From an uncultured Myxococcales bacterium (GTDB lineage: Bacteria > Myxococcota_A > UBA9042), in the NCBI GenBank assembly GCA_903917305.1, contig CAIXAA010000264.1, positions 1 through 27,740 on the forward strand: DNA of 27,740 nucleotides, in the 5' to 3' direction. The notes beneath the pieces are model-generated. The model did no database searches. It was given only the letters and a program-made list of their open reading frames with translations, and had not been told where the DNA came from. This document shows, in pieces, positions 512-27,740 of this stretch; the stretch's first letter is position 1, and every line of letters starts with the position of its first letter. Position numbers and translations under genes: made by a program.

Positions 512-1864
512 TCAGTGGCACTTGTTGGCGGGATCCGAAGACGAGCAGGAACGGCGGCTCTGGTACGGGAATTCCCGAATGTTCAACCAAGGATAGAGCA
601 GGGCGCCGCGCCGCACGCCGAGCGGGCCCTGGCTGCCGTGCGCGTCGTGGCAGTAGCTGCAGCCGATCTTGTCGCCCTTCATCCAGGACGTGTGGCTGAA
701 GTGCAAGTTCGTGGCCTTCAAGGCGAACTCGCTGGCGCGGATGCCCGGGTTGCGCACCTCGGCGAGGATGTTCGTCGCACCCGGCCAGCTGCCGTCGTGG
801 CACAGCAGGCAGTAGGTCGGGGAGCTTTGCGCGGCCGGCTCCGGCAACACCATGACATTGTACGGTGTATCGTCGGAGTTGATGAGGTTGGGCACGACCG
901 TCGTGTCGCGCGGGTCCGTCAGAATGCGGCGGTCATAGGCCACCGCGGCGCGCACGACGTGCGGGTCGTGGCAGGTGCTGCAGGTCATCCGGCGCGTCTC
1001 CGTGCGGCCCAGCGGCGAGGAACTGCCGTGGCGCGAGACCGCTGTCGCCATCGCGGTGAACTGCGCCTTGTGGCACGGACCGCAGGTCAGCGGCTCCCGG
1101 TCGCGCAGCAGCGCGGTGCCTGGGGCGGCGTTGTGCGACGTGTGGCACGTCGCGCAGCCTAGGGATTGGCCGAACACCTTGCCGGGCGCATGCGCCGAGA
1201 GCGGAAACTCCCGCATGTTATGGCAAGTGCGGCACAAAATGTCGTCCTTGGCCGTGATCACCAGGAACTTGCCGAGGCCGTTGCTGTGCGCGTCGTGGCA
1301 GGACGTGCACTGCAATTTACCATTGCGATCGAGGAGATCCGCGGCGATCGAGCCGCCCAGGCCGCTCGGCGCCGTGGCGGCCGGCACGAGGCCTGCCCGC
1401 GTCGCGGAGACGCCGGCGCCGTACACCACCGACACCGGGTGATCATTGGATAAGTCCGGGCCCAGCGCCTGGCCCGTCGGCGGTCGCATCGACGCACCCG
1501 CGGCCGCATCGTTGGCCACGCGGCGCAGGGTCGGCGCGACCTGCCCGTCATGACACGACAAACACAGCTTGGAGCTGCCGTCCGGCTGCCCCGCCGCCAG
1601 CTCGCCGCGCTGGCTCTCGTACGTGCGGTACGCGAGGTCCGGCGTCACGATGTTCCACAGCGGCCCTTCGCCGCCTGCGAAGTGCGGGGTGTGGCAAAAG
1701 GCGCAGGAGTCGCCCGGCGCACCCGCCTGCGCGCCTTGCTGCGTCAAGTCGTGCGGCCCGCCGCGAATGCCGACGGTCACGCCGCGGTCGCGCGCCAAGG
1801 CAGGCATCGAGCAGAGCGTGATTGCCAGGCAGATGAAAATGCTGCGAATTCCGTTTCCATGCAT
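512..1864 (-). CDS. Secreted multiheme c-type cytochrome: 9 CXXCH plus a C-terminal CX8CH; N-terminal four-heme domain is OmcE-like
   Basis: Start reassigned to ATG 1864 (GGAG-CATGCC-ATG, just after the beta-barrel stop at 1882). Signal peptide MHGNGIRSIFICLAITLCSMPALA. Motifs: CAFCH, CLSCH, CTSCH, CRTCH, CATCH, CGPCH, CSTCH, CLLCH, CSYCH, CSSSDPANKCH. Confidence 0.9.
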   Translation of the reverse strand: MHGNGIRSIFICLAITLCSMPALARDRGVTVGIRGGPHDLTQQGAQAGAPGDSCAFCHTPHFAGGEGPLWNIVTPDLAYRTYESQRGELAAGQPDGSSKLCLSCHDGQVAPTLRRVANDAAAGASMRPPTGQALGPDLSNDHPVSVVYGAGVSATRAGLVPAATAPSGLGGSIAADLLDRNGKLQCTSCHDAHSNGLGKFLVITAKDDILCRTCHNMREFPLSAHAPGKVFGQSLGCATCHTSHNAAPGTALLRDREPLTCGPCHKAQFTAMATAVSRHGSSSPLGRTETRRMTCSTCHDPHVVRAAVAYDRRILTDPRDTTVVPNLINSDDTPYNVMVLPEPAAQSSPTYCLLCHDGSWPGATNILAEVRNPGIRASEFALKATNLHFSHTSWMKGDKIGCSYCHDAHGSQGPLGVRRGALLYPWLNIREFPYQSRRSCSSSDPANKCH

Positions 1865-1881
1865 GGCATGCTCCGTTTCCG

Positions 1882-3843
1882 TCACAGCGGACGACCGACA
1901 CTGAGGAAGACGCGGTGGTTCTGGTACTGCTGATCCGGCGTCAACCGCATCTGCAAACGATAGTCCAACCGCAGCGTGATCGCCCGCATTCGCCAGAGCA
2001 GCGTTGTTTCGCCGTCCAGCGACTTGTTGCTGATGCTCGGACTCTCCTGGTCGAGGACGCGCCAGCGCCACTCCAGCGCCGCCGGGCTGCTCGCGCTGAT
2101 GTTGCCCTCGGTGAAGGCCTCGTAGTTCTTGCGCAATTCTGTCGGCAAGTCCTGGATGATGGCGCGCACGCCGAAGGACGGTCGCACCGGTCCGATGATG
2201 CCGCGCACCGCCAAAGAGCCGTTGTATTCCGTGGTTGTTACGCCCAGGGTGCGGTAGCGCCGCGTCTCTGCCGTCGCGGAGAGCGAGCCGACGCTGGCGG
2301 ACATGCCGCCGCCCAGCGTCTCGTAGCGGTCGTGCAAGACCGCTTCGCCATCGGTGCGGCGCTGGCTCCAGCGTTCGGACAGCTCCGCGAACATCGTGAT
2401 ATTGTGGAAGTAGGACGAGAAGATGCGCGCGGAGTAGCGGTGATCGACGGCGGTGCGGCCCTGGGAGGTCTGCGTCGTGTACTGGTAGTTGACGTAGACG
2501 CTGTCGCCGTCGGGGATCTCGGTGGCGACAAGTCTGCGAATGTACGTTTGATCTCCGGCCGTGCCCACCTCGTAGTCGATGCCGAGCCGGTACTTCTTGT
2601 TGGTCGTCTGCGACAGCACCACAACGGTCAACACGCTGACATTCAAGTGCATCAGCACCGTCGGCTGCATGCCGTTGAGCGTCTGCACTTCGTTGACCGC
2701 CGACTGCGTGCCGCCCGGCAGACCGCCGTTCTCGCGCGTGCCAAGGAACTGATAGTTGTGCGACATCACAGCGAAAGAGGAGAGCCGCTTGCGGTACATC
2801 ACGTCTTCGCCCAGGGAGCCCAGCAGCTGCGAGCCGCCCGGCACCTGCTGGCCGCCGCCCTGCACCATCGTGCCGAAAAACAGGCTTTGATACAGGCGGT
2901 AGCGCGTGTCGATGCGGCCCAGCTGCTGCAGCGACGACGTCGTCTCGTCGCGCTTGGCGTTGAGCTGGTAGTCGAGGCGCGACTCCAGCTCCGGCAGCCA
3001 ACGCGCGGTGCCGAGCACCGTGAAGTACCCGTCATCACGCCGCATGTCCGAATCGCGCCGAATCCAGCGCAGCCGCGTGTCGATGCGAAAACGCCGCAGT
3101 GTCACATCGCCCGGATAGAGCACGTGGAACAGCGCCAGGTCGTGGCTCAAGTAGTTGAGATCCGTCATCTTGACGTTGTCGTACTTGTAGAAGCGGTACT
3201 CCATCGTCGCGTTCTGCCGCTCGCCGTCGTAGCGCACGTCGCCGGAGCCTTGCATGAACGTGTCGTTGCCGAAGTCCGTGCCGCCCGTGCCGAAGTCGTT
3301 GGCCATCCTCGAGAAGGCCGCGCGGACGGGGAACAGGTTGTTGCGCCAGTTCCAATCGACACCCTCGGTGGTCTTGGTCACGTCGTAATTGTTCACGAAG
3401 TCGCGGCGCACGATGTCCGTGTACTGCCGCGCGAACAGGTGCAGCGGAAAGGCCCGCGATTTCAGAATGGATGTGTCGGCGCGGTACTCGACCTTGGTGG
3501 AGTTGAACGGCACCGTCCGCGTCGTGTCATCGCTCTTCTGCTGCATGAACAGGACCGTGCCGCCCAGCTCCCACGACCAGAACTGCGGGGCCAGGATGCT
3601 GCCGCGCGCCAGGGCGCCAATGCGCTCGCCCACCAGCGCGGAGTAGCTGTGCGAGCTGTCCTTGGCGTCCTTGAACAGGTCGTAACCGCGGTACTGGTAG
3701 CCGGACACCAGCTCGTACGCGCCGCGGATGTCGTCGAAGTGCAGCCACTGCAGCTTCTTTTTCGCGGCCAGCGCCTGCGACGGGCACAGAAGCACCGCGG
3801 CGATCGCCGCCAGGAGCAGCAGCCGCGCGCGCGCCGGCTTCAT
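1882..3843 (-). CDS. Large outer-membrane beta-barrel protein of porin-cytochrome type (653 aa)
   Basis: ATG 3843 overlaps the upstream cytochrome stop (ATGA). Signal peptide MKPARARLLLLAAIAAVLLCPSQALA. Many alternating hydrophobic/polar beta-strands rich in Tyr/Trp/Arg, C-terminal strand RVFLSVGRPL, no heme motifs, and flanked by cytochrome genes. Confidence 0.75.
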   Translation of the reverse strand: MKPARARLLLLAAIAAVLLCPSQALAAKKKLQWLHFDDIRGAYELVSGYQYRGYDLFKDAKDSSHSYSALVGERIGALARGSILAPQFWSWELGGTVLFMQQKSDDTTRTVPFNSTKVEYRADTSILKSRAFPLHLFARQYTDIVRRDFVNNYDVTKTTEGVDWNWRNNLFPVRAAFSRMANDFGTGGTDFGNDTFMQGSGDVRYDGERQNATMEYRFYKYDNVKMTDLNYLSHDLALFHVLYPGDVTLRRFRIDTRLRWIRRDSDMRRDDGYFTVLGTARWLPELESRLDYQLNAKRDETTSSLQQLGRIDTRYRLYQSLFFGTMVQGGGQQVPGGSQLLGSLGEDVMYRKRLSSFAVMSHNYQFLGTRENGGLPGGTQSAVNEVQTLNGMQPTVLMHLNVSVLTVVVLSQTTNKKYRLGIDYEVGTAGDQTYIRRLVATEIPDGDSVYVNYQYTTQTSQGRTAVDHRYSARIFSSYFHNITMFAELSERWSQRRTDGEAVLHDRYETLGGGMSASVGSLSATAETRRYRTLGVTTTEYNGSLAVRGIIGPVRPSFGVRAIIQDLPTELRKNYEAFTEGNISASSPAALEWRWRVLDQESPSISNKSLDGETTLLWRMRAITLRLDYRLQMRLTPDQQYQNHRVFLSVGRPL

Positions 3844-4769
3844 CGGGCGCCTCCGGCCTTGGGCACCTTGCGCGGCGCGCTCTTGGGATCCGGCCGCAGC
3901 ATGTAGCGCTTGCCGGAGCCGTGCGGATCGTGGCACTTCGTGCAGCCCTTCAAGTCTCCGTTTTCATGCGGGGAGCGGCTGCGCAGGTCGGCTTCCAGGT
4001 GGCAGTGGTTGCAGAGGGCGTCGCCGCGGATCTTGAGCAGCGACTTCTCCTTGCCGCCGTGGCCGCCGTGGCACAGCGTGCACATGCCGGCCGCCACCGG
4101 GCCGTGCAGGGGCGCGCGTTTGCGCATATCGTTGAAATGGCAGCGACCGCACACCTGCAGGCCGGTCTTCAAGAACGACGGGCCCTTGCCGCCGTGGCCG
4201 TCGTGGCAGTCGGTGCAGTTGCGGTCTGTTCCCAAGGGCTTGTGGCGCGTGGCGAAGCGCGTCTCTTTGTAGTCGTGGCAGTGGGCGCAGAGCTTCTCGG
4301 GCGTCTCGCGCAGAAGCTTTTGCCATTCGCTTTGATGCGGCTCATGGCAGACGAGGCAGGAGCCATCGCCGACCGGAGCGTGCGCCGGCACCAGGATGAC
4401 CTTCTCCTTCTTGTGGCACGTCAGGCACAGATCCGAAGCGCGCACCAGCGGTCCGCGATCGATGATGTCGTGGCAGGCGCGGCACTGCCGGTTCAGCCAG
4501 GGCGGATGCTCGCTGTGCTGCGGAAAGATGGCGCTTTCGCCGGCATCGCCGGTCAGCGTGTCGGTCTGCACCGTGTCGCGCATGCTCTCCGGCGGCGGCA
4601 CGCCGTCGAAGAAGAACGACAGCACTTCATGGCGTTGTTCTGGCGTGTGGCAGCCCGTCGCCAGCAGCGCGACGATCAGCAGCAAGCAACGGACGGCCGT
4701 GCAGCCTGCGCGGCCTGGGACCGGTGCAGCGCAAGCTGGAGGCTCGTCCGGAGGGTTCGCCACGGCCAC
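3840..4769 (-). CDS. Nonaheme c-type cytochrome lipoprotein (paired CXXCH...H type)
   Basis: Probable GTG start at 4769 with GAGG 6 nt upstream; exact start uncertain. Lipobox LLATG-C. Motifs: CRACH, CLTCH, CLVCH, CAHCH, CTDCH, CGRCH, CTLCH, CNHCH, CTKCH. Confidence 0.88.
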   Translation of the reverse strand: MAVANPPDEPPACAAPVPGRAGCTAVRCLLLIVALLATGCHTPEQRHEVLSFFFDGVPPPESMRDTVQTDTLTGDAGESAIFPQHSEHPPWLNRQCRACHDIIDRGPLVRASDLCLTCHKKEKVILVPAHAPVGDGSCLVCHEPHQSEWQKLLRETPEKLCAHCHDYKETRFATRHKPLGTDRNCTDCHDGHGGKGPSFLKTGLQVCGRCHFNDMRKRAPLHGPVAAGMCTLCHGGHGGKEKSLLKIRGDALCNHCHLEADLRSRSPHENGDLKGCTKCHDPHGSGKRYMLRPDPKSAPRKVPKAGGAR

Positions 4770-4785
4770 ACAACGCCTCGCCGGA

Positions 4786-6015
4786 TCAGGGCGCCTTGGG
4801 CGTCGTAGCCGGCTCGGGGAGATCTTCGACGTCGCCCAAGCCCTTGGGAGTCGTCGGTGCGGCCGTGCCTGATGGCACTGCTGCCTTGGCAGGCGCCGGC
4901 AGGTCCTTCTCCGGTCCCAGCCAATCGCCGAATCCGTAGACATTCACGCGGCGTGCGCCGTACTGGCTGACCACGAGGATGACATGGCGCACCTTGAGCC
5001 GCACATCGGCCAGCTTCTGGAAGCGCTCGATGCCCCGCGCCGAGATGTCGATGCCCGCCGGCAGCACCAGGTTGCCCGGATCGTTGCCCGGGCCGCCAAA
5101 GAACAGCAGCAGTTGTCCATCCTTGTCGAAGATCTGCACGTTCTCGAACGCGGCGTCGACGGCATACAGCCGCCCATCCGGGTCGATCGCCACGCCCTTG
5201 GGCCGCGAGAAGCCGCCAGGACCGTCGCCCAGGCCGCCGTACATGCGCACGTGGGTGCCGTCCGGGTGCAGGCGCTGCACGCGGAAGTTGCCGGTCTCCG
5301 AGACGTAGAGGTCGCCGTCGGGCCCGACCGCGACGTTGGTCGGGATGTAGAACTTGCCCGGATCCTTGCCGCCGCCGCCGATGCGGCGCTTGACGGCGCC
5401 GGTCAGCCGGTCGAACACGATGATGTCGTTGTTCTTGAGGTTGCAGACGTAGACCTCGTCGTCCTTCACCGCGACGCCGGCGGCCTTCATCAAGCCTTCG
5501 GTGCCGTAGGCGCGCAGGAACGACTCGTCGGGGCCGTAGGCGAGCACCTGGTTGCGGGTGCCGTCCGCGACGTAGATGGTGCCGTCGGGCGTCGAGGTGA
5601 CCTGCATCGGTTGGCGCGCGCGGCCGCCGCCGGTGTTGCCCTTGAGCGGGCGGAACTCGTGGGCGGCCAGATCGAGAACGAAGATCTCGTGCGCACTTGC
5701 GTCCGACACGACGACGCGATCGCCGACGAGTGAGGCGCTGTACGGCTTGCCCAGCCCGCCCTTGGACGCGTCGTCCTTGCCGACGACGAACTCCGACAGG
5801 GCGCTGGTTTGCTCGATGTCCTCGGCCGACGTGTAGGACGTGAGGAACTGGATGCGCGGCCGGTTGGGCAGGGGCGGGTAGAAGACGGCGCTGCCCTTGC
5901 CGTTGTCGGTCGCGCCGCTGCACGCGGACAGCAGGGCGATCAGCGCACAAACGGCCCAGGATCCGAGGCGGGTCACTGGATGGTCAGACTTGGGATGGGG
6001 ATGAGGACCGGGCAT
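4786..6015 (-). CDS. NHL-repeat 6-bladed beta-propeller lipoprotein
   Basis: ATG 6015 with AGGA 7 nt upstream. Lipobox LLSA-C. N-terminal FYPPLPNRPRIQFL. Repeated NHL blades: PTNVAVGPDGDLYVSETGNFRVQ, RPKGVAIDPDGRLYAVDAAFENVQIF, QPMQVTSTPDGTIYVADGTRNQV. Confidence 0.9.
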   Translation of the reverse strand: MPGPHPHPKSDHPVTRLGSWAVCALIALLSACSGATDNGKGSAVFYPPLPNRPRIQFLTSYTSAEDIEQTSALSEFVVGKDDASKGGLGKPYSASLVGDRVVVSDASAHEIFVLDLAAHEFRPLKGNTGGGRARQPMQVTSTPDGTIYVADGTRNQVLAYGPDESFLRAYGTEGLMKAAGVAVKDDEVYVCNLKNNDIIVFDRLTGAVKRRIGGGGKDPGKFYIPTNVAVGPDGDLYVSETGNFRVQRLHPDGTHVRMYGGLGDGPGGFSRPKGVAIDPDGRLYAVDAAFENVQIFDKDGQLLLFFGGPGNDPGNLVLPAGIDISARGIERFQKLADVRLKVRHVILVVSQYGARRVNVYGFGDWLGPEKDLPAPAKAAVPSGTAAPTTPKGLGDVEDLPEPATTPKAP

Positions 6016-6257
6016 GACGGCATCCTTGTCGGCGGCCGGACGCTGTTGGCGGCCGGGGTCTGCAGCCGGGTCCGGAAGTCCCTGGCCGAGGCAGGGCGGA
6101 GCGCAGTGCAGCGTTGGCGGCGTCCGGACTTGCGACCGCAATGCACAGGATGTGCACGGTGCTGCTCACTAGCAGAAGGCACTGAGGTGGTCAACGCGAC
6201 GGAGCGCCCAGCCGGCCGCGTTCCCTTCCTCGCCTGGCGCACGGGCCAGGCACCGCC

Positions 6258-6281
6258 CCCCGCCGCCCGAAGACGACGGGG
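6258..6281 (-). other. Stable RNA hairpin with a C(UUCG)G tetraloop 3' of the omcE-like gene (mRNA stabiliser or partial terminator); second hairpin at 6232-6251
   Basis: Minus strand reads CCCCGTCGTC-TTCG-GGCGGCGGGG (10-bp stem, 2 G-U pairs), followed by GCCTGGC-N6-GCCAGGC. No U-tract follows. Confidence 0.6.
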
Positions 6282-6297
6282 AGCAGCACCGCAACAA

Positions 6298-6933
6298 TTA
6301 CTTGTTGTGGCAGGACAGGCACAGCGCGCTGCCGTTGTTCAGCATGCGCAGGAACTTGCCCTTGGAGTTGTCATGGACGCTATGGCACGTGGCGCACTGC
6401 ATCTGGGCTCCGAAGAGCGGCAGAATGCTGGCTGCGTCGACGTACTTGTCGCTGACCGGGCTCTTGAGGCCACCGTCCGACGTGGCCAGGGCCGCGTCGT
6501 ACGTGAACGAAATCGGGTGATCATTGGTCAGATCAGTCCCGAGCTTCGCGCCACCCGGATCCATGAAGTGCGTACCAGCGTTGCCGCCGTACGAGTCCAG
6601 CGCGACGGTACCGTCGTGGCAGGACAGGCACAGCTTGGACGTACCCGTCGGCTGACCGACGACTGCGTTCAAGGTAGCGCTGGTGTAAGCACTAAAGGTC
6701 GCAACAGTCACAGCGTGGTTCCACAGCGGGGCGCCCGGGACGGCCTGAGCGTTGTGTGGCGTGTGACAGAAAATGCAGATCTGGGTTGTACCCCAGCCCT
6801 GCGCGGAAAGGTCGTGGGCCGTACCAGCGATGCCAGCTTGCGCATCACGGGCCGGAGCCAGAACCACAAGCAACAGACCGGTCAGCACCATTGCTGCCGT
6901 CGTCAAGAAAGGAAACCGGCTAAGAGATCTCAT
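6298..6933 (-). CDS. omcE: OmcE-like tetraheme c-type cytochrome, candidate cytochrome-nanowire subunit (211 aa, ~178 aa mature)
   Basis: ATG 6933 with GGGAGG 7 nt upstream. Sec signal ending AQA. Motif order matches Geobacter OmcE as recalled: HDLS, CIFCHTPHNAQ, PLWN, SKLCLSCHDG, LGTDLTNDHP, CATCHSVHDN, FLR, GSALCLSCH at the extreme C-terminus. Confidence 0.8.
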   Translation of the reverse strand: MRSLSRFPFLTTAAMVLTGLLLVVLAPARDAQAGIAGTAHDLSAQGWGTTQICIFCHTPHNAQAVPGAPLWNHAVTVATFSAYTSATLNAVVGQPTGTSKLCLSCHDGTVALDSYGGNAGTHFMDPGGAKLGTDLTNDHPISFTYDAALATSDGGLKSPVSDKYVDAASILPLFGAQMQCATCHSVHDNSKGKFLRMLNNGSALCLSCHNK

Positions 6934-6956
6934 TACCATTCCTCCCAATGTGGGTC

Positions 6957-7005
6957 GACGACCCGTCTTGCTGCGCATGCAGCGGAACGAGTAGACGACC
7001 CGTCT
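6957..7005. repeat. 12-bp direct repeat GACGACCCGTCT (6957-6968 and 6994-7005), each copy self-complementary (GACG-N3-CGTC), in the omcE-like 5' UTR
   Basis: Two exact copies read directly, 37 nt apart, between the sigma54 motif and the RBS. Confidence 0.7.
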
Positions 7006-7017
7006 GCGAGGCTGTGG

Positions 7018-7033
7018 TGCACACGGCGTGCCA
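7018..7033 (-). promoter_or_regulatory. sigma54 (-24/-12) promoter for the omcE-like operon
   Basis: Minus strand TGGCACG-CCGT-GTGCA with exact GG-N10-GC spacing, ~85 nt upstream of ATG 6933 and next to a sigma54 activator gene. Confidence 0.75.
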
Positions 7034-7142
7034 AACAGGACCGCAAGCTGCAAGCCGCTGAGAGTAAAGGGTTGTGTGGGTATTGCCGCGATCGTGTAGC
7101 CGGTCTGCGGCTGCGTCATCCGACGCAGTGCGCCGCCACGCG

Positions 7143-8621
7143 CTACTTGAGCAGGCCGAACTTGCGCAGCCGGTAGCGCAGGAGGTCGCGGCTCACGCCG
7201 AGCAGGTTCGCCGCCTGCACCTGGTTGCCACCGCAGCGCAACATGGCCTGGCGCAAGATCTCTTGTTCGAGGTCGTGCAGGCCGATGGTGCCGTCGAGCT
7301 TGAGTTGCAGGACGACCTCTTCGCCTTCCGCCACCGGCGACTCCGCCGCGTGCGCGGTCGGATGCGGCAGCGGGGGCGGCGGGGGCGCAGCCCCGGCAGG
7401 CAGCTCCGGCGGAAGAGGCAACGCCGTCCGCAGCCTCTGGATCTCGTCGGGCAGCACATCGATGCGCACGAGCGGATCGCGGTCGGACAGCACGATCGCC
7501 GCCTCGATCACGTGGCGCAGCTCGCGCACGTTGCCCGGCCAGGCGAAGGCACGCAGCACGGCGCGCGCCTCCGGCGAGAAGCCGGTGACCTGCGAACCCA
7601 TCTCGCGTGCGAAGATGCCGAGGAAGTGATCCGCCAGAAGATCAATGTCTTGCACACGGTCGCGCAGCGGCGGCAGGTTCAGCGTGAGGACCTTCAAGCG
7701 GTAGTACAGGTCCTCGCGGAACTTGCCGGTCGCCACCAGATCGCGCAGGTCGCGGTGCGTCGCCGTCACGATGCGCACGTCCGCCTGGACCTCGCGCGTG
7801 CTGCCCAGGCGTCGGTAACTGCGCGTTTCGATGAAGTGCAGCAGCTTGGCCTGCATCTCCACCGGCATGTCGCCGATCTCGTCGAGCAGCAGCGTGCCGC
7901 CGTTGGCCTCTTCGAGCAGACCGCGCTTGGCGACGCGCGCATCGGTGAAGGCGCCACGCTCGTGACCCATCAGCTCGCTCTCGATCAGCGTCTGCGGCAC
8001 CGCCGCGCAGTTGATCTCGACGAACGGCGAATGCTTGCGGTCACTCAGCTCGTGCAGCGCGCGAGCGAACACGCTCTTGCCCACGCCCGTCTCGCCCAGC
8101 ATCAGCACGGTGCTGCGCGGCGTGTGCGCGAAGCGGCGCAGTCGGTCGAGCAGCAGCCCCATCGACGGGTGGGCGCTGTAGATGCCGAGCCGCGCCAGAT
8201 CCTCGGTCGAGGGCAGTTCCGCCGGCGCGGGCGCATTGACCGCTTGGATGCGCGCCAGCGCGTCGAACAGGTTGTCCGCTTCGAACGGCTTGGAGAGGTA
8301 GTCGTTGGCGCCCAGGCGCATCGCCTCGACCACCGTCGGCACATCGCCAAAAGCGCTGGTCACGATGACCTTGGGGCGGTCGCTCGGCGACAGCTCCTGC
8401 AGCAGATCGAGGCCGCGGCCGTCCGGCAGACGGATGTCCAGCAGGATCACGTGGGGCTGCGATCGCGCCAGCACTTCGCGCGCCTCAGCGAGCGTGGCGG
8501 CAGCCGTTGGGATATAACCCCAGCGTTTCAAGTCTTTGCACGTGGACCAGGACAGCAGCTTCTCGTCCTCGATGACCAGGACGTGCGTTCCGGGTTCTAC
8601 GCGACCAGCAGCGATGGGCAT
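7143..8621 (-). CDS. NtrC-family sigma54-dependent response regulator (REC - AAA+ - Fis-type HTH)
   Basis: REC: VLVIEDE...[10 protein letters not shown]...YLSKPF. Walker [15 protein letters not shown] loop, Walker [35 protein letters not shown]: [20 protein letters not shown]. Start taken at ATG 8621 (AAGGT upstream). Confidence 0.95.
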
Positions 8622-8764: not shown

Positions 8765-8780
8765 TGGCACGAATCCAGCA
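8765..8780 (+). promoter_or_regulatory. Putative sigma54 promoter for the kinase-cytochrome gene
   Basis: TGGCACG-AATC-CAGCA with GG-N10-GC spacing. The -24 box is perfect, the -12 box is degenerate (CAGC rather than TTGC). 64 nt upstream of ATG 8845. Confidence 0.5.
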
Positions 8781-8844
8781 GTACCTTCCTGCGCGATCTT
8801 CGGGCAGTCATGCGGCCGCCCTCTCCCAGACAAGGCAAACGTAG

Positions 8845-11800
8845 ATGTGCGCCGCACCTCACAATCCGCGGTCTGGAGTCTGGCGTGCCGCCGGCCCGTG
8901 GCGTTGGATCGTGTGGGTCGACTCGCTCGTCTCGACCGTGCCTGGCCGCGTGTTCCTCGCGACCCTGGCCGTGCTCGTCGTCACCAGTTACGTGTTGATG
9001 AACGTGCTGTTCCAGGAGGACCGCTTCCACGCGCTGACCGAGCCGCAGCGCCAGGCGGACACGGAGGCGGCGCAGCGCACGCTGGAACTCTCTCTGCTCA
9101 AACAGGATCCACGGCAGGTGGACGCGGACCTCGTCGCGATCAGCCGCCGCCTGCCGAGCATCGTGCGCATCGACGTGGCAGGTCCGGATGATCTTGTGCG
9201 CTATTCGACGTTGCCGCAGGCGCTGGGGCGGCCGCCGACCCTGCTCGACGCAGCGACGGCGCGGATGGCGGCAGCGCACGGCGTTTCCATCGAACGCTCC
9301 GGCGATCCGGGGCGCCACGTCCTGGTGCGCCCGGTGCTGCTGCCGCCCACGTGCGCCAATTGCCACCGCGGTTCGTTCGACCCTGATCTCGGGCGCATGT
9401 ACGTGGTCACGGACAACGTCGCGGCGATCCAGGCGCTGCGGGGTACGACGCTGTCCGTGCTGCGCCTGCTGGCCGTGATCGTGCTGGTCCTCGCGATCGT
9501 GCTGGGCATCTACGTGCACCTGAGCTTCATCGTCCCCGCGCGGCGTTTTGCCGATCACCTGCGCCAATTGGGCGATGGTCCGGCGCCGGGGATGGTCGAT
9601 GTGGCCACGCTGCCGGCCGAACTGCGCCAGATCGCGCACGCCTTCAACCGCGGCGTCGAGAGCCTCATCGCCGCGCGCCAGGAGGTCGAGCGCCTGCAGC
9701 AGGAGCGCCTCGCGCACGTCGAGCGGCTGGTCAGCATCGGCCGCTTGTCCGCGATGCTGGCGCACGAGATTCGCAACCCGTTGGCCGGCATCTCGAGCGC
9801 CGTGCGGATCCTGGCCGAGGAACTGCCGATCAAGGAAGAACATCAGGAGATCGTGGATGAATTGCAGCGGCAGGTGAAGCGCTTGTCGCGCACCTTGACC
9901 GAGTTGCTGTCCTCCTCGCGGCCCCACGACCCGGTGCCCGGTCGCCTGTGCCCGCAGGAGGCGGTGGCGCGCGCGGCGCACATCGTGCAGCCGGCGTTCG
10001 AGCGGCGCGGTCTGCACTTCGTCGTGAGCATGGAGCCCGACACGCCGGCGGTGTACGCGGACGAGGAGTGCCTCGTGCAGGTGCTGCTCAACCTGCTGGT
10101 CAATGCCGAGCAGGCGGTGGCCGGCGCGGGGCTGGTGCGCGTCGACGTGCACCGCTCGTCGGACAACGACGGGATGGTGGCGATCACGGTGGCGGACAAT
10201 GGTCCGGGCATGCCGCCGGAGGTGCTGGCGCGCGTCGGCCAGCCGTTCTTCACGACCAAGAAGGAAGGCACGGGCTTGGGGCTGGCGATCAGCCGCGAGA
10301 TGGTGGAGCGCATGGGCGGCCGGCTGCTGGTCGCCTCGCCGCCGGGGCAGGGCGCGAGCGTGACGGTGATGCTGCCGGCCTTTGCCGACCAGGCGGCGCC
10401 GCAGAACCCGGAGCTGGACGTGGAGCCGAACGCGACGGTCGGGCTCATGCCGCGCCGCCACTGGAAGACGCCTGGGACCGGGACGGAGCTGGGCATCGGC
10501 CTGCTGGCGCTGCTGGGTGCGCTGTGGCTGCTGCCGGCGCCGGCGCTGGCGGCGCCGCGCAAGGTGCCGGTGGCGGCCAAGCCGCTGCCCAAGCCGGGGC
10601 CTTCGTGCGTGACGTCGGCGTGCCACAAGTCGGTGCTCAAGAAGCCGGATCGGCATGCGATGTTGCGGCCTTCGACCTGCTCCTTGTGCCACCAGCCGAT
10701 GCGGCGGCCGGGCGTGGTTCCGCGCGAAGGTGCGCCGGAGCCGTTCGGCACGGAGCTTGCCCTGCAGAACAGCAAGTCGCACCCGGCGGGTGGTTTCCAG
10801 CCCGTGCGCGAGCGGTTGCGGGCGCGCATGGGGCCGCCGCTGCCGACCAGCGGGCCGATCGGCGGCGTGGGCGGTTCACCGGAGGCGGGGCCGCACAGTC
10901 GCGCAGCACGCGGCAATTGCACGCTTTGTCATGATCCGCACGCGGCGGCCAAGGACCACCTGCTGCGCAAGCCGGTGCCGGGGCTGTGCATGATGTGCCA
11001 CCAGAAGACCTGGCCGCGCACGAAGTTCACCCACGCGCCGGCGGCGATGGGCGATTGCCTGGACTGCCACGTGCCGCACGCCGGCCGGATCCGGCCCAAC
11101 CTGCGCACCACCCAGCCGGAGCTGTGCTTCGATTGCCACACGGAGATGAAGGAGCGCCTGTCCAAGGTGCGCCTGCATCCGCCCGTCGCGGAGCGCTGCA
11201 GCCTGTGCCACGGCCCCCACGGCGGCAACCACCGCATGTTCTTCAAGGAGGAGGGCAATGCGCTGTGCCTGTCCTGCCACAAGGCGATCGAGCAGCACGC
11301 CAAGACCGCGCCGTTCAAGCACAAAGCCCTGACCAAGGCGTGCACGTCCTGCCACGATCCGCACGGCACGCCGGAGCCGCGCCTGCTGCGCCAGCCCATG
11401 GTTGCGCTGTGCACGTCCTGCCACGAGAAGGTCGGCAGCGAGGTCGGCGCGGCGCATTTCCTGCACGGCGCCCTCGACCGCGGCAGCTGCACCGGCTGCC
11501 ACGATCCGCACGGCGGCAGCTTCCAGGCGCTGCTGCGCGGCCCGTTCCCGGTCAAGAAGCCGTACCAGGCGTTCGAGGGCGATCCGTACGGCCTGTGCTT
11601 TCTCTGCCACGAGCGGATGCTGCTCGAGAGCGGCAAGCCGCCGCGCACCGGCTTTCGCAACGGCGACAAGAACTTGCACCATGTTCACGTGGCGCGCGGC
11701 GAGAAGGGGCGCTCCTGCATGCTGTGCCACTCCCCGCATGGCGCCGACCAGCCGCACATCCTGCGCGAGGAGATGCCGTTCGGCTCGGCGAAACTGCCCA

Positions 11801-11931
11801 TGGAGTTCACGGCTTCACCTGATGGTGGCAGCTGCAAGTCGGCGTGCCACGAGGTGCGCAAGTACGCGCGCCGCGACATCGTGAAGGTGGCGCCGTTGCC
11901 CGCCGCGCCGACGCCGACCACCAAGAAGTAA
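8845..11931 (+). CDS. Sensor histidine kinase (TM - heme-c periplasmic sensor - TM - HAMP - HisKA - HATPase_c) fused in frame to a signal-like segment and a 12(+2)-heme cytochrome c
   Basis: Periplasmic PPTCANCH; H-box LAHEIRNPL; N-box QVLLNLLVNA; G1 DNGPGM; FFTTK-EGTGLGL. Then LGIGLLALLGALWLLPAPALA, CVTSACH, 12 CXXCH and CKSACH. No stop codon between the kinase and cytochrome parts. Confidence 0.88.
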   Translation: MCAAPHNPRSGVWRAAGPWRWIVWVDSLVSTVPGRVFLATLAVLVVTSYVLMNVLFQEDRFHALTEPQRQADTEAAQRTLELSLLKQDPRQVDADLVAISRRLPSIVRIDVAGPDDLVRYSTLPQALGRPPTLLDAATARMAAAHGVSIERSGDPGRHVLVRPVLLPPTCANCHRGSFDPDLGRMYVVTDNVAAIQALRGTTLSVLRLLAVIVLVLAIVLGIYVHLSFIVPARRFADHLRQLGDGPAPGMVDVATLPAELRQIAHAFNRGVESLIAARQEVERLQQERLAHVERLVSIGRLSAMLAHEIRNPLAGISSAVRILAEELPIKEEHQEIVDELQRQVKRLSRTLTELLSSSRPHDPVPGRLCPQEAVARAAHIVQPAFERRGLHFVVSMEPDTPAVYADEECLVQVLLNLLVNAEQAVAGAGLVRVDVHRSSDNDGMVAITVADNGPGMPPEVLARVGQPFFTTKKEGTGLGLAISREMVERMGGRLLVASPPGQGASVTVMLPAFADQAAPQNPELDVEPNATVGLMPRRHWKTPGTGTELGIGLLALLGALWLLPAPALAAPRKVPVAAKPLPKPGPSCVTSACHKSVLKKPDRHAMLRPSTCSLCHQPMRRPGVVPREGAPEPFGTELALQNSKSHPAGGFQPVRERLRARMGPPLPTSGPIGGVGGSPEAGPHSRAARGNCTLCHDPHAAAKDHLLRKPVPGLCMMCHQKTWPRTKFTHAPAAMGDCLDCHVPHAGRIRPNLRTTQPELCFDCHTEMKERLSKVRLHPPVAERCSLCHGPHGGNHRMFFKEEGNALCLSCHKAIEQHAKTAPFKHKALTKACTSCHDPHGTPEPRLLRQPMVALCTSCHEKVGSEVGAAHFLHGALDRGSCTGCHDPHGGSFQALLRGPFPVKKPYQAFEGDPYGLCFLCHERMLLESGKPPRTGFRNGDKNLHHVHVARGEKGRSCMLCHSPHGADQPHILREEMPFGSAKLPMEFTASPDGGSCKSACHEVRKYARRDIVKVAPLPAAPTPTTKK

Positions 11932-11943
11932 GGGATTCGGCAG

Positions 11944-12774
11944 CTACTTCTTCAGCTTGTCCACGCAAGCCTGCTTGCCCGCGAGCGCTTCCGCGTGGGC
12001 CGCATCCAATGCCAGCGCCTTGTCGAACGCGACGATGGCGTCCTTGCACTTGTCTTGCGCCGACAGGATGTTGCCGTGCAGCGCGTGTGCCGGCGCCTGG
12101 GCGGCATCGATCTCCAGGCTCTTCTGCACGGCCTCCAGCGCCTTCTCCAAGTTGCCGGACTTGAAGAGCATTCCCGCGAGCTTGAAGTAGCGCCGCGCCG
12201 CCGTCAGATCGACGCCGACCTTGGACGCCGGCGGACTCAGCACGTCAGCCAGCTGTTTCTCCGTGATCTCACCCAACTGGAACAGCACGCGCGCCTTGAC
12301 CGTCTCGCAGAAGTTGATCTTCATGAACGGCACGAAGGCGATCAGCTTGTGCGCGCCGTCCGCAATGACCACGAACGGCAGCTGCGCCGCTTCCAGCGCG
12401 CCGTACACCGCGTCGCCGGCATCGAGCAGCACCGGCATGGCCACGCCAGCTTCCCCAATCGCCGTCTTGACTTCCGCGGGCGTGAAGCGGTCCGAGACGA
12501 TGCCCGTCCAGCGCAGCGGCTTGCCGGAGAGCTCGCGCTCGCACAGCGCCATCTGCTTCATCACGTCGCGCGAGTGGTCCTGATCCGGCCGAAAGAAGAA
12601 CAGGATCTGCGCGCCCTCTTTGCCCAGCAGGTGGCGCTTGCCGCCCTGCACGGTAGCCAACTCCGCATCGGCAATCACGGTTCCGTTGGACGCGTGCGCC
12701 GTGGCAAACGGGCTGTGCAGGCCCGCCCAGAGCACCGCGCAAGCCATCAGCAGCGAGCGGTGCGCCACTGTCAT
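11944..12774 (-). CDS. Exported thioredoxin-fold (TlpA/redoxin-like, lacking CXXC) plus TPR protein
   Basis: ATG 12774 overlaps the cytochrome stop (ATGA). N-terminal signal. Redoxin fold FFFRPDQDHS...PVLLDAGDAVYGALEAAQLPFVVIAD. C-terminal TPRs: LEKALEAVQKSLEID; AHALHGNILSAQDKCKDAIVAFDKALALD. Confidence 0.75.
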   Translation of the reverse strand: MTVAHRSLLMACAVLWAGLHSPFATAHASNGTVIADAELATVQGGKRHLLGKEGAQILFFFRPDQDHSRDVMKQMALCERELSGKPLRWTGIVSDRFTPAEVKTAIGEAGVAMPVLLDAGDAVYGALEAAQLPFVVIADGAHKLIAFVPFMKINFCETVKARVLFQLGEITEKQLADVLSPPASKVGVDLTAARRYFKLAGMLFKSGNLEKALEAVQKSLEIDAAQAPAHALHGNILSAQDKCKDAIVAFDKALALDAAHAEALAGKQACVDKLKK

Positions 12775-13976
12775 GGCGCCGCCTGCGCGTTGCCGGCGGT
12801 CTTGACGACGTTCACGTAGGTCTTGGCCGTGTGGCAGGTCTTGTCGCAGGTGCCGCCATCGGCGTTCTTCTTGTAATTGACCTGCAACAACCAGCCCTTG
12901 GAGCCGAACGGCACGCTGTCGCGCACCTGGAACGCCTGCTTGGAGGCGTGGACCTCGTGGCACGCCCGGCAGGTGCGGCCGCGGTCCGGCTTGTTCACGT
13001 GGACGAAGTGCAAGTTCCGGTTGCCATTGCGAAAGCGCGTCGCCGTCGTCGTCTCCTTGGTGCTGATCATCTTGGAGTCGTGGCACTCGAAGCACAGCGC
13101 GTAGTTCTCCGGGTTGAAGGGGGCGTAGAAGCGCGCCGGGTAGACCTCGCCCAACAGCCGGAAGTTGTCGCCGCCGTGCGGCTGGTGGCACGCGCTGCAG
13201 TCCTTGTCCGCCACAGGCGCGTGGTGCACCGGGTTGTCGTCGAGCAAGGTCTTGAAGTTCACCAGCTTCTTGCCGTCGCCGTCCGTGATGTCGTCCTTGC
13301 TGTGGCAATTCACACACAGGTCAAAAGGCAGCGCAATTAGAAGCTTTTCGATGTTCGATGCATGCGGATTGTGGCAATTGACGCAGGACGCGCCCTGGGT
13401 CAGCGCGCCGTGCTGCACCCGCGCCTCCATCTTGCTCTTGATCTTGGTGTGGCAGCCGACGCACAGGGCGGGCGGCCGCGACACCAGCAAATGCGGCTGC
13501 TTGGAGTTGTGCGGGTTGTGGCAGTTCGTGCAGTTCTCTTCGGCGACGATGTGGCGCGCCTTGCGGCTGGCGAAGAGGTCGGTGAACTCGTCGTGGCAGC
13601 TGAAACACACCTTGTTCACGGGCTTTTGCGCGGGGCCCGGGTCCTTCGGGTCGTTCTTGGCGTGGCAGATGCTGCAGTCGCCGCTGGCGTAGGGACCGTG
13701 CGCCGACACCGCCTCCTTGTTGTCGCAAGGCGAGACATTCACGGGCTTTCGCTGCGGCGCGGAGATGTCTTTGTAGTTCGCGCCCGCCCCCTGCTCGACT
13801 GGCGCGCCCGCCGCGGGCTTGTCCGATGGCTTGCCGGGCGCCGCGGGGGCAGCGGGAGCCTTCTTGTCCGGCTTCTTGCCCTTGGCTGCCAGCGCCGGCG
13901 CCGCCGAAAGCGTCAAGGACAGCGCGACGAGCGCGGCCAGGATGGGAAAAAGTGTAGCCGAAATGCGTGCTTTCAT
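12771..13976 (-). CDS. Periplasmic multiheme cytochrome c, 9 CXXCH plus a C-terminal CX3CH (probably decaheme)
   Basis: ATG 13976 with GAGG RBS. Signal MKARISATLFPILAALVALSLTLSAAPALA. Motifs: CSICH, CFSCH, CTNCH, CVGCH, CVNCH, CVNCH, CSACH, CFECH, CRACH, CDKTCH. Confidence 0.92.
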   Translation of the reverse strand: MKARISATLFPILAALVALSLTLSAAPALAAKGKKPDKKAPAAPAAPGKPSDKPAAGAPVEQGAGANYKDISAPQRKPVNVSPCDNKEAVSAHGPYASGDCSICHAKNDPKDPGPAQKPVNKVCFSCHDEFTDLFASRKARHIVAEENCTNCHNPHNSKQPHLLVSRPPALCVGCHTKIKSKMEARVQHGALTQGASCVNCHNPHASNIEKLLIALPFDLCVNCHSKDDITDGDGKKLVNFKTLLDDNPVHHAPVADKDCSACHQPHGGDNFRLLGEVYPARFYAPFNPENYALCFECHDSKMISTKETTTATRFRNGNRNLHFVHVNKPDRGRTCRACHEVHASKQAFQVRDSVPFGSKGWLLQVNYKKNADGGTCDKTCHTAKTYVNVVKTAGNAQAAP

Positions 13977-14043: not shown

Positions 14044-14059
14044 TGCAAGAACCGCACCA
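14044..14059 (-). promoter_or_regulatory. sigma54 promoter for the decaheme cytochrome / redoxin-TPR operon
   Basis: Minus strand (C)TGGTGCG-GTTC-TTGCA with GG-N10-GC spacing and a perfect -12 TTGCA, 67 nt upstream of ATG 13976. Confidence 0.65.
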
Positions 14060-22902: not shown

Positions 22903-24111
22903 ATGAACGCCGCACCTCCACCCCAGCCTGCTGCGGACGCGCCGGGACCCTTTCGACGTTTGAAGTACGCCACGGCGATTGCGCTGGCGGGCATCGCGAT
23001 CGGCGCTCTCGCTTGGGCGCAAGCCGGAGACAAGGTGCCCGTTGCTGGCCCGAAGGCAGAAGTCGCCAAGCCCACCGACGCTGCCAAGGATGGCGCGAAG
23101 CCTGCGGCAGCCGCCGCGCCGGACAAAGCGCATGTGGCGGCCAAGCCGGCGACGCCTCCGAGCGGCATCGTCAAGGGCGGCAACGTCTCCGCGTGGAACA
23201 TCACGGATACCGCGAAGGTTTTTGCCGACGCCAAGCGCCTCGGGCTGGACACCATCACCGTGCCGGTGCGCGTCGACATGGCCGCCGCCAACGCGTCGGA
23301 AGTGACGCTCGATGCGGCAAGCCTTGAATTCGCCAAGAAGATCGTCGAGAGCAACCCTTCCTACAACTACATCATCGAACCGTACCCCTGGATCGACAAC
23401 GGCAATGTGCCGGAGACCGACCTGGACCCGGCCGACAAGGCGGCGTGGTTCGTCTCCTACCAGGGCGCGCTCGTGTCGCTGGCCAAGCATTTCCCAACGG
23501 CTTGGGGCCTCTACGTCGCCTCGAACCTCGTCAAGATCGAGGATCAGTCGGCCAGCTGGATCGCGCTGGTCAAGGGCGTTCGCGCGGCATTTCCCGGCAA
23601 GATCATCTACCGCACGCAATGGTGGGCCACCGCCGCGTGGGAACCGAGCACGGTCAAGGCCTACCAGGCCAAGTTGAACAATCCGCTGTTTGGCGCGGTC
23701 GACGTCATCGCCATCGCCTCCTACTTCGAGCTCAGCGAGACCGCGGCACCGACGACGGCGGACATCAAGGCCGCGCTGCGGTCGACCACGGTCTTCGCCC
23801 GCAAACAGGACGTGTATGCCGAGGTCATGGCGCTTGGGGCCAAGTGGCAAAAGCCGATCTTCCTTGGGGAACTCAGCTGCCCATCGGTGGATTTCGGCGC
23901 GCAGAACCCGTGGGATCCGGCCGCGAGCGAGACGCCGAACGCCGACATCCAACGCAACTACCTGACCGCGTACCTCGAGACCTTCGCTCGAGATCCCGCG
24001 AAGTTCATGGGTTTTTCGTTGTTCACCATCGGCCATCCGACCGTTACGCCCTACGAATTGGCCCCGTCGGCGGCGGAGTACGTGCGCAGCTTCAAGTTGC
24101 CGCACCGCTAG
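22903..24111 (+). CDS. Exported GH113-like TIM-barrel glycoside hydrolase homolog
   Basis: Hydrophobic signal segment and Ala/Pro/Lys linker. Then IIEPYPWI, WFVSYQGAL, WIALVKGVRAAFPGKIIY, VDVIAIASYFEL, KPIFLGELSCPS (nucleophile-Glu motif like GH113 F-F-x-E-x-G-C-P-S), QRNYL. Confidence 0.65.
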   Translation: MNAAPPPQPAADAPGPFRRLKYATAIALAGIAIGALAWAQAGDKVPVAGPKAEVAKPTDAAKDGAKPAAAAAPDKAHVAAKPATPPSGIVKGGNVSAWNITDTAKVFADAKRLGLDTITVPVRVDMAAANASEVTLDAASLEFAKKIVESNPSYNYIIEPYPWIDNGNVPETDLDPADKAAWFVSYQGALVSLAKHFPTAWGLYVASNLVKIEDQSASWIALVKGVRAAFPGKIIYRTQWWATAAWEPSTVKAYQAKLNNPLFGAVDVIAIASYFELSETAAPTTADIKAALRSTTVFARKQDVYAEVMALGAKWQKPIFLGELSCPSVDFGAQNPWDPAASETPNADIQRNYLTAYLETFARDPAKFMGFSLFTIGHPTVTPYELAPSAAEYVRSFKLPHR

Positions 24112-24139
24112 GCGTCCAGCCCCATTTGGAGACACCGAA

Positions 24140-25342: not shown

Positions 25343-25406
25343 CCGCGACGAACGAGGCAAAGCGAAAGCGAAAGCGCTTACCCCGAGCCGTGTTCCGGGT
25401 CCTGCG

Positions 25407-26705: not shown

Positions 26706-26778
26706 CGATCTCCCGCCCGCGGCCCAACCGAGTATGTCGACTTCGCCTGGCCCGGTCAACGCGAACGCGGGGTTGCGG

Positions 26779-27738: not shown

Positions 27739-27740
27739 GG

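Follow-up and report, generated by a model that had tools for sequence, protein, structure and literature searches.

Why should the gene for a sensor histidine kinase run on, in the same reading frame, into a cytochrome with 14 haem-binding sites? The question is raised by an open reading frame (ORF) at positions 8845-11931 of a 27,740-nt stretch of DNA from an uncultured Myxococcales bacterium (assembly GCA_903917305.1, contig CAIXAA010000264.1; G+C content 67%), which is referred to as the window in its full length. It touches on a wider problem, namely how electroactive bacteria sense the outlet for their extracellular electrons and switch on their cytochrome nanowire genes, which is largely unknown. 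The locus is probably best regarded as a redox-sensing two-component switch in which the cytochrome partner serves as an antenna for the kinase, a reading to which we assign a probability of roughly 60%; both the redox sensing and the wiring from kinase to regulator to operon are what we infer from gene architecture and synteny.

The ORF lies on the forward strand, starts with ATG and consists of 1028 codons followed by a stop, with no stop codon in between (protein P0001), and the same fused frame is present in the loci L013, L014 and L027. As judged from the charge count, the N-terminus is basic and should therefore be cytoplasmic. It is followed by a first transmembrane segment (TM1, residues ~33-57, nt 8941-9015), which is apparent from hydropathy and charge count and appears as a helix in the AlphaFold2 (AF2) model, by a predicted periplasmic single-Cache/PDC sensor domain with one site for a c-type haem (nt 9016-9444; assigned by AF2, Foldseek and a conserved CXXCH motif), and by a second transmembrane segment (TM2, residues ~201-230) leading into a HAMP-like helical linker (together nt 9445-9699; Pfam, hydropathy and AF2), for which the Pfam HAMP match is weak (residues 228-269). 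The haem motif of the sensor, CANCH, starts at residue 170 (nt 9352-9366) and thus lies within the loop between TM1 and TM2. The catalytic core (nt 9739-10380) is complete up to the last "...VMLP" strand and contains a HisKA domain (residues 299-360; PF00512, E 2.3e-13) with the H-box AHEIRNPL, whose phospho-acceptor His307 (nt 9763-9765) is invariant in our alignment A1, as well as an HATPase_c domain (residues 406-512; PF02518, E 1.6e-26) with conserved N, G1, F and G2 boxes (NLLVNA, DNGPGM, PFFTTK and GTGLGL). By its domains and motifs, the kinase half is accordingly predicted to be a class I (HisKA-type) sensor histidine kinase. A variable linker of 22 residues (nt 10381-10446, delimited by alignment) connects it to a third hydrophobic segment (TM3), which comprises residues ~547-571 (nt ~10483-10557) by hydropathy and, together with the preceding residues, looks like a retained Sec signal peptide (nt 10447-10557), composed of the n-region MPRRHWK, the h-region LGIGLLALLGALWLL and the c-region PAPALA/AP with a signal-peptidase-I-like site (the slash marks the putative cut here and below). 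The remainder (nt 10558-11928) is a multihaem cytochrome domain resembling MtrA and DmsE, which is made up of two haem sites, a Pro/Gly-rich linker, 12 more haem sites and, at the C-terminus, a small beta domain that bears a CX3CH motif. The initial annotation of this DNA, which was made from the sequence alone, had already described a single uninterrupted 1028-residue ORF, a complete class I sensor kinase, a third hydrophobic segment at about 10489-10551, 12 CXXCH motifs plus one CX4CH and one CX3CH, and a topology that returns the cytochrome to the periplasm beside the haem sensor of the kinase; each of these features was recovered, and an N-in orientation with three membrane segments supports the periplasmic location of both the haem sensor and the cytochrome.

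A fused frame of this kind may also arise as an artefact, if a stop codon or the frame is lost by errors in sequencing or assembly or by a very recent mutation, and this had been the worry of the initial annotation, which pointed to positions 10370-10450 as the place to look for it. The stretch is contained in the per-run contigs of four lake-water metagenomes, which were compared over positions 8800-12000. The critical junction is bridged without any stop codon by contigs from three lake-water samples, two of which show 0 differences to the window (X1 record 3, covering 10353-10468, and X3 record 20, covering 10109-10473), while the third (X2 record 13) represents a strain variant with nine substitutions and the codon CGC inserted in frame after position 10396. 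A protein matching this strain is on record (P0002; 1029 residues, 99% identical to the window protein). The changes of the X2 strain (nine substitutions and the one-codon insertion) are packed into 56 nt of the window (10383-10438) between nearly identical flanks, which marks the linker between kinase and cytochrome as a local hotspot of change. In the sole RNA run, 5% of the sequence words of the stretch are present.

Fused relatives were also obtained from other sources. A word-indexed search of 5.8 billion proteins retrieved them at 99, 82, 43 and 35% BLASTP identity, corresponding to 100, 82, 46 and 39% in a MAFFT alignment. The locus L013, which stems from another project, encodes a protein (P0003) of 82% identity that is fused in the same way, and its gene order is fully syntenic with the window. 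The reading frame has remained intact between these two loci at a synonymous divergence (dS) of 0.78 per site, and the ratio of non-synonymous to synonymous divergence (dN/dS) amounts to 0.07 in the kinase core, 0.12 in the part with haems 3-14, 0.16 in TM3 and 0.43 in the 22-residue linker. The more distant fused homologues P0004 (46%) and P0122 (39%) have complete kinase domains; P0122 was added by running a HMMER profile against 1.84 billion cluster representatives, carries the NCBI label "hypothetical protein [Deltaproteobacteria bacterium]", and its fused ORF is found again in the GTDB genome G238, which belongs to another family of the same class. Genuine fusions are present in the window, L013 (P0003), L014 (P0004) and L027 (P0122), all of which have a complete set of kinase domains and are free of homopolymers of six or more nucleotides and of an alternative-frame kinase end at the junction.

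The same inspection led to the rejection of P0005 (L015:1578-4298) as a fourth fused lineage, since a run of eight G near the 3' end of its kinase part shifts the frame: the +1 frame of the contig restores the true kinase C-terminus (...LELESAE...HLP...EELP) and a TGA stop codon overlapping the ATG of the cytochrome, which is preceded by GGAGGAG. Public gene calls for this kinase-cytochrome family can thus contain false fusions. A match spanning both halves in L081, found by scanning contigs with patterns from the fused alignment, turned out to consist of separate genes; apart from this, the scan of genome contigs with the fused alignment, whose patterns derived from the generic kinase core, returned ordinary kinases only. 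The case of P0005 demonstrates that exactly the feared type of frameshift does occur in this family. For the window, however, the absence of such a homopolymer and of a kinase end in another frame, the agreement between assemblies made independently from three samples and with a second project, the in-frame nature of the indel in the strain variant, and the survival of the frame at a dS of 0.78 leave an artefact as a very remote prospect. The fusion is kept by selection and represents neither a lost stop codon nor an assembly error, and there is hardly any doubt that it is a real, maintained gene.

The comparison of orthologous loci, which the initial annotation had proposed, shows the pair in a fused state in L013, L014 and L027 and in a split state with overlapping ATGA stop and start codons in sister lineages. 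The kinase closest to P0005 is P0124 (530 residues, with the sensor CXXCH present), whose TGA overlaps the ATG of a 354-residue cytochrome (P0154). The latter starts with an ordinary signal peptide, MTHRTRSFALLVAAGTALGLVASPEARA/AGPD, and its mature end opens with a CX4CH motif (CQTSACH), as does the cytochrome part of the window protein. P0131 exhibits the same 4-nt overlap with the gene for a cytochrome of 519 residues. The orthologous kinase of G022, in turn, is a separate protein devoid of the sensor haem, and its gene is immediately followed by an operon starting with a gene for an OmcE-like protein. Since the cytochromes of the split relatives carry homologous N-terminal signal peptides, TM3 of the window protein should be regarded as the cytochrome's own signal peptide.

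In phylogenetic analysis, the kinase family is recovered as a supported clade (98/100), with P0005 and P0124 (100/100) and P0004 and P0122 (89/95) forming pairs and the base of the tree remaining without resolution. As fused members are interleaved with split ones, fusion or fission must have occurred at least twice. The tree of the cytochromes, whose homologues were picked according to how they scored with a profile built from the fused proteins, places the seven kinase-linked sequences (fused or split) on one side of a branch with an SH-aLRT value of 95 and the cluster's paralogue and 29 homologues taken as free-standing on the other. Kinase and cytochrome have thus travelled as a dedicated pair in the fused as well as the split state, which argues for a joint action of the two by the classical Rosetta-stone argument.

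The cytochrome part contains one CX4CH motif at residue 588, twelve CXXCH motifs at residues 612-958 and one CX3CH motif at residue 997. All of the cysteines in its 457 residues (28 of 28) are located inside these 14 haem motifs, and 21 extra histidines are available as distal ligands. The unusual CX4CH of the window protein aligns with a canonical CXXCH of P0004, and no relative has lost the CX3CH. Pfam and NCBIfam searches detect six Paired_CXXCH_1 stretches between residues ~690 and 1000, together with c7/c3 matches and partial matches to the DmsE/GSU2203 decahaem families. The sole significant relative in the PDB is chain A of 6R2Q (sequence E 2.4e-17; fold E 4.6e-7 over 244 columns with 27% identity and a TM-score of 0.56 by target), which we take to be MtrA; it is labelled "Cystathionine beta-synthase" in the sequence file, and the title of the entry reads "Structure of the Mtr complex". 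On the basis of the structural model, the domain would adopt an MtrA-like haem-wire fold. Its score of 117 bits against a cut-off of 192 for NCBIfam TIGR03508 and its 14 instead of ten haem sites place it outside the DmsE family proper. It shares the repeated paired-CXXCH wire with the MtrA/DmsE decahaem cytochromes, but differs from them in the number of haem sites (14 versus 10), the internal Pro/Gly linker and the C-terminal beta domain with CX3CH, and in having a kinase, instead of the gene of an MtrB porin, as its fused or coupled partner. Note that the low-confidence Pro/Gly-rich linker (residues 621-690, window 10705-10914) occupies the place of a haem site that hardly varies across the cytochrome family at large; the site replaced in the clade of the window protein is still present in P0004, P0005 and most of the free homologues.

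An AF2 model of the N-terminal half, calculated from an alignment of eight sequences (pLDDT 82), predicts the order TM1, two helices, a sheet of four to five strands with the CXXCH in a short helix, TM2, and the long helical HAMP region. As judged by Foldseek, its best structural relatives are WalK (5is1, TM-score 0.66 by target), CitA and DcuS, with the haem-c sensor GSU0935 (3b42_B) at rank 7. The residues C170, C173 and H174 are invariant across the five sequences of A1, and the CXXCH motif recurs in P0122 and P0124; it is absent from P0131, P0141 and G022. A Pfam search of P0001 at E <= 0.1 yielded no match to PF21563 or PF11845, the described haem-Cache families, and clusters carrying PF21563 or sCache_4 emerged as a language-model lead only. 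Known haem-c periplasmic PAS/Cache sensors include the sCache_haem/DUF3365 type (Deshpande et al., 2026, preprint, PMC12889525) and examples from Anaeromyxobacter (PMC3831638). The window domain resembles GSU0582 and GSU0935 of Geobacter (PDB 3B47 and 3B42) in being a periplasmic PDC/Cache-type domain that is bounded by transmembrane segments, carries one CXXCH and feeds into HAMP and transmitter modules, but differs from them in that its best structural matches are non-haem domains of the WalK/CitA type; moreover, the known haem-c Cache/PAS sensors are not coupled to a multihaem partner. The domain should accordingly be described as working like the haem-c Cache/PAS sensors rather than as a member of them. 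The idea that sensor haem and cytochrome partner strictly go together was also considered and rejected, because P0131 has an adjacent cytochrome without a sensor CXXCH.

By inspection, all fused members display h-regions of 13-15 residues, a Pro in the c-region and a small-X-Ala motif followed by Ala/Ser-Pro, and the n-region of the window protein is basic. Putative sites for signal peptidase I read ALA/AP, SWA/AP, VWA/AP and SASA/SP, and the same pattern recurs in the signal peptides of the split cytochromes. The uncharged stretch of TM3 in the window protein measures 23 residues, which suffice to span the membrane, so that a permanent tether is feasible as well. As far as can be read from these features, a cut by signal peptidase I, by which the cytochrome would be set free next to the sensor, appears slightly favoured and is at least as likely as tethering; a permanent tether may be expected with somewhat less than even odds. 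The initial annotation had spoken of a kinase physically tethered to an electron wire, a tether that may or may not last, since TM3 represents a retained Sec signal peptide and the relatives secrete the cytochrome separately. Should the precursor remain uncleaved, the kinase might keep a covalent link to a 14-haem wire of sufficient length to reach an outer-membrane OmcE/porin conduit, reading the electron flux of the extracellular electron-transfer chain directly as a built-in voltmeter and autoregulating its nanowire output, which we put forward as a tentative and rather doubtful extension. A prediction of the complex between the Cache domain (residues 56-201) and the cytochrome domain gave a score of 0.06 against a mark of 0.32, a result that counts neither for nor against binding.

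An ORF in which a membrane protein precedes a c-type cytochrome and an internal signal peptide directs its export has a parallel in FbcH, the cytochrome b-c1 precursor of Bradyrhizobium japonicum, which was reportedly found by Thony-Meyer and co-workers in about 1989-1991 to be cleaved into two proteins; unlike the pair described here, a signalling protein and a cytochrome, the products of FbcH are two subunits of one respiratory enzyme. As expected for a precursor of this type, all fused members were found by inspection to have n-, h- and c-regions with small residues at -3 and -1. The fused gene may on this ground also be viewed as a polyprotein of convenience, in which coupled neighbouring genes became joined by chance, signal peptidase I cuts after the ALA ending at residue 571, and the cytochrome is an ordinary electron carrier of the OmcE/porin conduit, that is, a regulatory target without sensory input. 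That every fused member has kept all features of a cleavable signal peptide, that split relatives encode the cytochrome as a separate secreted protein, and that it is an MtrA-like wire resembling the other cytochromes of the cluster would all be explained in this way. Yet the kinase-linked cytochromes constitute a distinct clade that has stayed with the kinase family, and not with the conduit genes, through fused and split states, the cluster already has its own cytochrome paralogues, and a periplasmic haem, which makes sense in the presence of a redox partner, is found in the majority of the family's kinases; we therefore rate a chance fusion of this kind as improbable, at a fraction of the weight of a sensory role.

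One ORF may further give rise to two products, if most of the cytochrome were made from an internal start at ATG 10447 (or GTG 10420) and the read-through fusion were a minor species. The in-frame ATG indeed opens the signal peptide in the window as well as in L013, and a GGAG precedes GTG 10420 by 6 nt in the window. However, no Shine-Dalgarno sequence is found in the 18 nt before ATG 10447 in either locus, whereas those of the split relatives are strong (GGAGGAG in L015, AGGGAG in L025), and the GGAG/GTG combination is not conserved in L013. In P0004 and P0122, moreover, start codons are lacking upstream of the hydrophobic h-region core (in P0122, TTG and ATG occur only inside this core), so that their cytochromes can be exported only within the fusion. 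Internal initiation is accordingly quite unlikely as the main source of the cytochrome.

The gene next to the kinase, as already pointed out in the initial annotation, codes for a sigma-54-dependent activator. It is oriented divergently (7143-8621, reverse strand) and encodes a response regulator with a REC domain, an AAA+ domain with the motifs GETGVGK and GAFTDA (Sigma54_activat, PF00158, E 1.5e-64) and an HTH_8 domain; an rpoN gene is present in the genome (G000:C763). The signature loop of the regulator reads GAFTDA compared to the canonical GAFTGA. The same divergent pairing of regulator and kinase is found in L013, L027 and L025/L026, and a regulator containing a REC domain adjoins the kinase in four loci. 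Three putative promoter elements of the -24/-12 type stand out in the window. The first of them, TTGGCACGCCGTGTGCAC (7017-7034, reverse strand), lies about 100 nt upstream of a gene for an OmcE-like protein, and the corresponding pattern TGG[CT]A[CT]-N5-GTGCA recurs at -95 to -102 from the ATG of the OmcE-like gene in four loci. The second, TGGCACGAATCCAGCA (8765-8780, forward strand), is located about 65 nt upstream of the kinase ATG in a block conserved in L013, and is found only in the window and in that locus. The third, TGGTGCGGTTCTTGCA (14044-14059, reverse strand), is likewise conserved in L013 and lies about 65 nt upstream of a cytochrome gene starting at 13976. A perfect 7-4-7 palindrome, CTGCGTCGGATGACGCAG, is present at 7111-7128, 15 nt after the stop codon of the regulator, with the -24 element following about 77 nt downstream; L013 retains the palindrome in part, and it could be either the stem of a terminator or an enhancer-binding site.

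Downstream of the regulator and on the same strand follows the operon which the initial annotation had linked to nanowires, and the identity of its first gene bears this out: it codes for a true homologue of OmcE, a member of the tetrahaem nanowire-subunit family (6298-6933, reverse strand; phmmer E 7.7e-32 with 7tfs_A and 1.8e-24 with 9yuq_N), behind the positionally conserved -24/-12 element described above. Genes for OmcE-like proteins with 64-87% identity stand beside the regulator and kinase genes in four loci (the window, L013, L027/G238 and L016/G022). The rest of the cluster (512-6141, reverse strand) encodes an NHL beta-propeller (ORF 4786-6141, start uncertain), a 9-haem MtrA-like cytochrome (3840-~4940, start uncertain), a putative large beta-barrel of 653 residues (1882-3843), whose predicted structure resembles large outer-membrane barrels including those of the MtrB/PioB type, and another 9-haem cytochrome (512-1885). 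This order matches the minimal omcE cluster, which consists of an OmcE homologue, a beta-propeller, two multihaem cytochromes and a large beta-barrel (PMC13712944). By gene content, the region 512-7034 on the reverse strand is thus a putative OmcE-type nanowire cluster. It shows the minimal gene pattern of the OmcE nanowire systems (PDB 7TFS; PMC13712944) and differs from them by its occurrence in an uncultured high-GC lineage, its pairing with a dedicated sigma-54 two-component system, and the single propeller gene seen in the window.

On the other side, the kinase-cytochrome gene is met by a convergent gene for a TPR protein (11944-~12750, reverse strand), which is abutted by that of a paralogous cytochrome with nine CXXCH motifs (12771-13976, reverse strand). 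Several database homologues (P0052, P0074, P0078, P0087 and P0108) combine TPR repeats and this type of cytochrome in one protein, which makes this a second fused/split pair at the same locus. The genes at 22903-27740 of the window code for GH113-like, WecB, Dicty_CTDC-repeat and NfrA_C-domain proteins and look unrelated to the kinase locus.

These features may be combined into the following model. The fusion would join a haem-Cache class I kinase to its dedicated periplasmic MtrA-like cytochrome via the Sec signal peptide of the latter, which now serves as third membrane span. With the N-terminus of the precursor in the cytoplasm, TM1 and TM2 would place the haem-Cache sensor in the periplasm, the HAMP, HisKA and HATPase modules would remain cytoplasmic, and the signal-like TM3 would re-export the C-terminal 457 residues, which should then receive their 14 haems. 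The cytochrome may equilibrate with the periplasmic or extracellular electron-transfer chain and so act as redox antenna or co-sensor of the kinase, probably reporting to the haem-Cache domain by electron exchange or contact. The kinase would in turn control how far the divergently encoded sigma-54 response regulator is phosphorylated, and this regulator is expected to drive the -24/-12 promoters of the OmcE-type nanowire and porin-cytochrome operon and, in this lineage, apparently also those of the kinase gene and of the paralogous cytochrome-TPR pair.

Several observations weigh against such a redox antenna. The haem-to-haem relay cannot be universal, given that the sensor haem is missing in the three members mentioned above (P0131, P0141 and G022) and that G022 lacks an adjacent partner cytochrome as well, and the cytochrome could simply be a co-expressed part of the conduit. 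The family is tiny: the 150 top scorers out of 1.84 billion cluster representatives include about eight of its kinase clusters, of which three are fused, and the power of comparison is correspondingly low. In the cytochrome tree, the free status of the 29 outgroup sequences was judged from their length only. With regard to the promoters, the -24/-12 pattern is not enriched in the window (35 matches compared with 39 expected), so that the case for them rests on position and conservation, and a comparison of 8- and 9-mers among the three promoter regions revealed no shared upstream activator site.

Kinases that sense via a periplasmic partner protein are exemplified by TorS-TorT and LuxQ-LuxP, and kinases that sense a redox pool by ArcB and RegB. 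These systems have in common that the state of the kinase is set by another protein located in the periplasm or by a redox pool, which is the logic proposed here for the window pair; it differs from them in that the partner would be a multihaem cytochrome, which some lineages translate together with the kinase as a single chain. The individual ingredients are familiar ones, namely haem-c Cache/PAS sensors, MtrA-type wires, sigma-54 two-component systems and omcE clusters. The searched literature contains no multihaem cytochrome that is described as a dedicated partner or covalent part of a sensor kinase. In line with the remark of the initial annotation that the architecture is not known to be characterised, no characterised example of the fusion was found in the searched literature or among 1.84 billion cluster representatives; fusions in other kinase or cytochrome families would rank lower in such searches and were not surveyed.

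Within the limits set by the uncultured host, the small size of the family and the question of the tether, we regard the finding as a solid and testable lead towards the sensing and switching of genes for nanowires and extracellular electron transfer. The locus represents a compact module in which a single kinase and its dedicated multihaem partner are combined with a sigma-54 regulator and an OmcE-type operon whose promoter is recognisable, and its natural fused and split versions, a classic sign of joint function, offer ready-made constructs for such tests. If the proposed switch is correct, it would provide a handle for the engineering of redox-responsive gene circuits. If the tethered form applies, the protein would provide the first demonstration that a multihaem cytochrome can serve a two-component kinase as its input module, and, more generally, a multihaem cytochrome employed as signalling antenna would constitute a new type of input for two-component systems.

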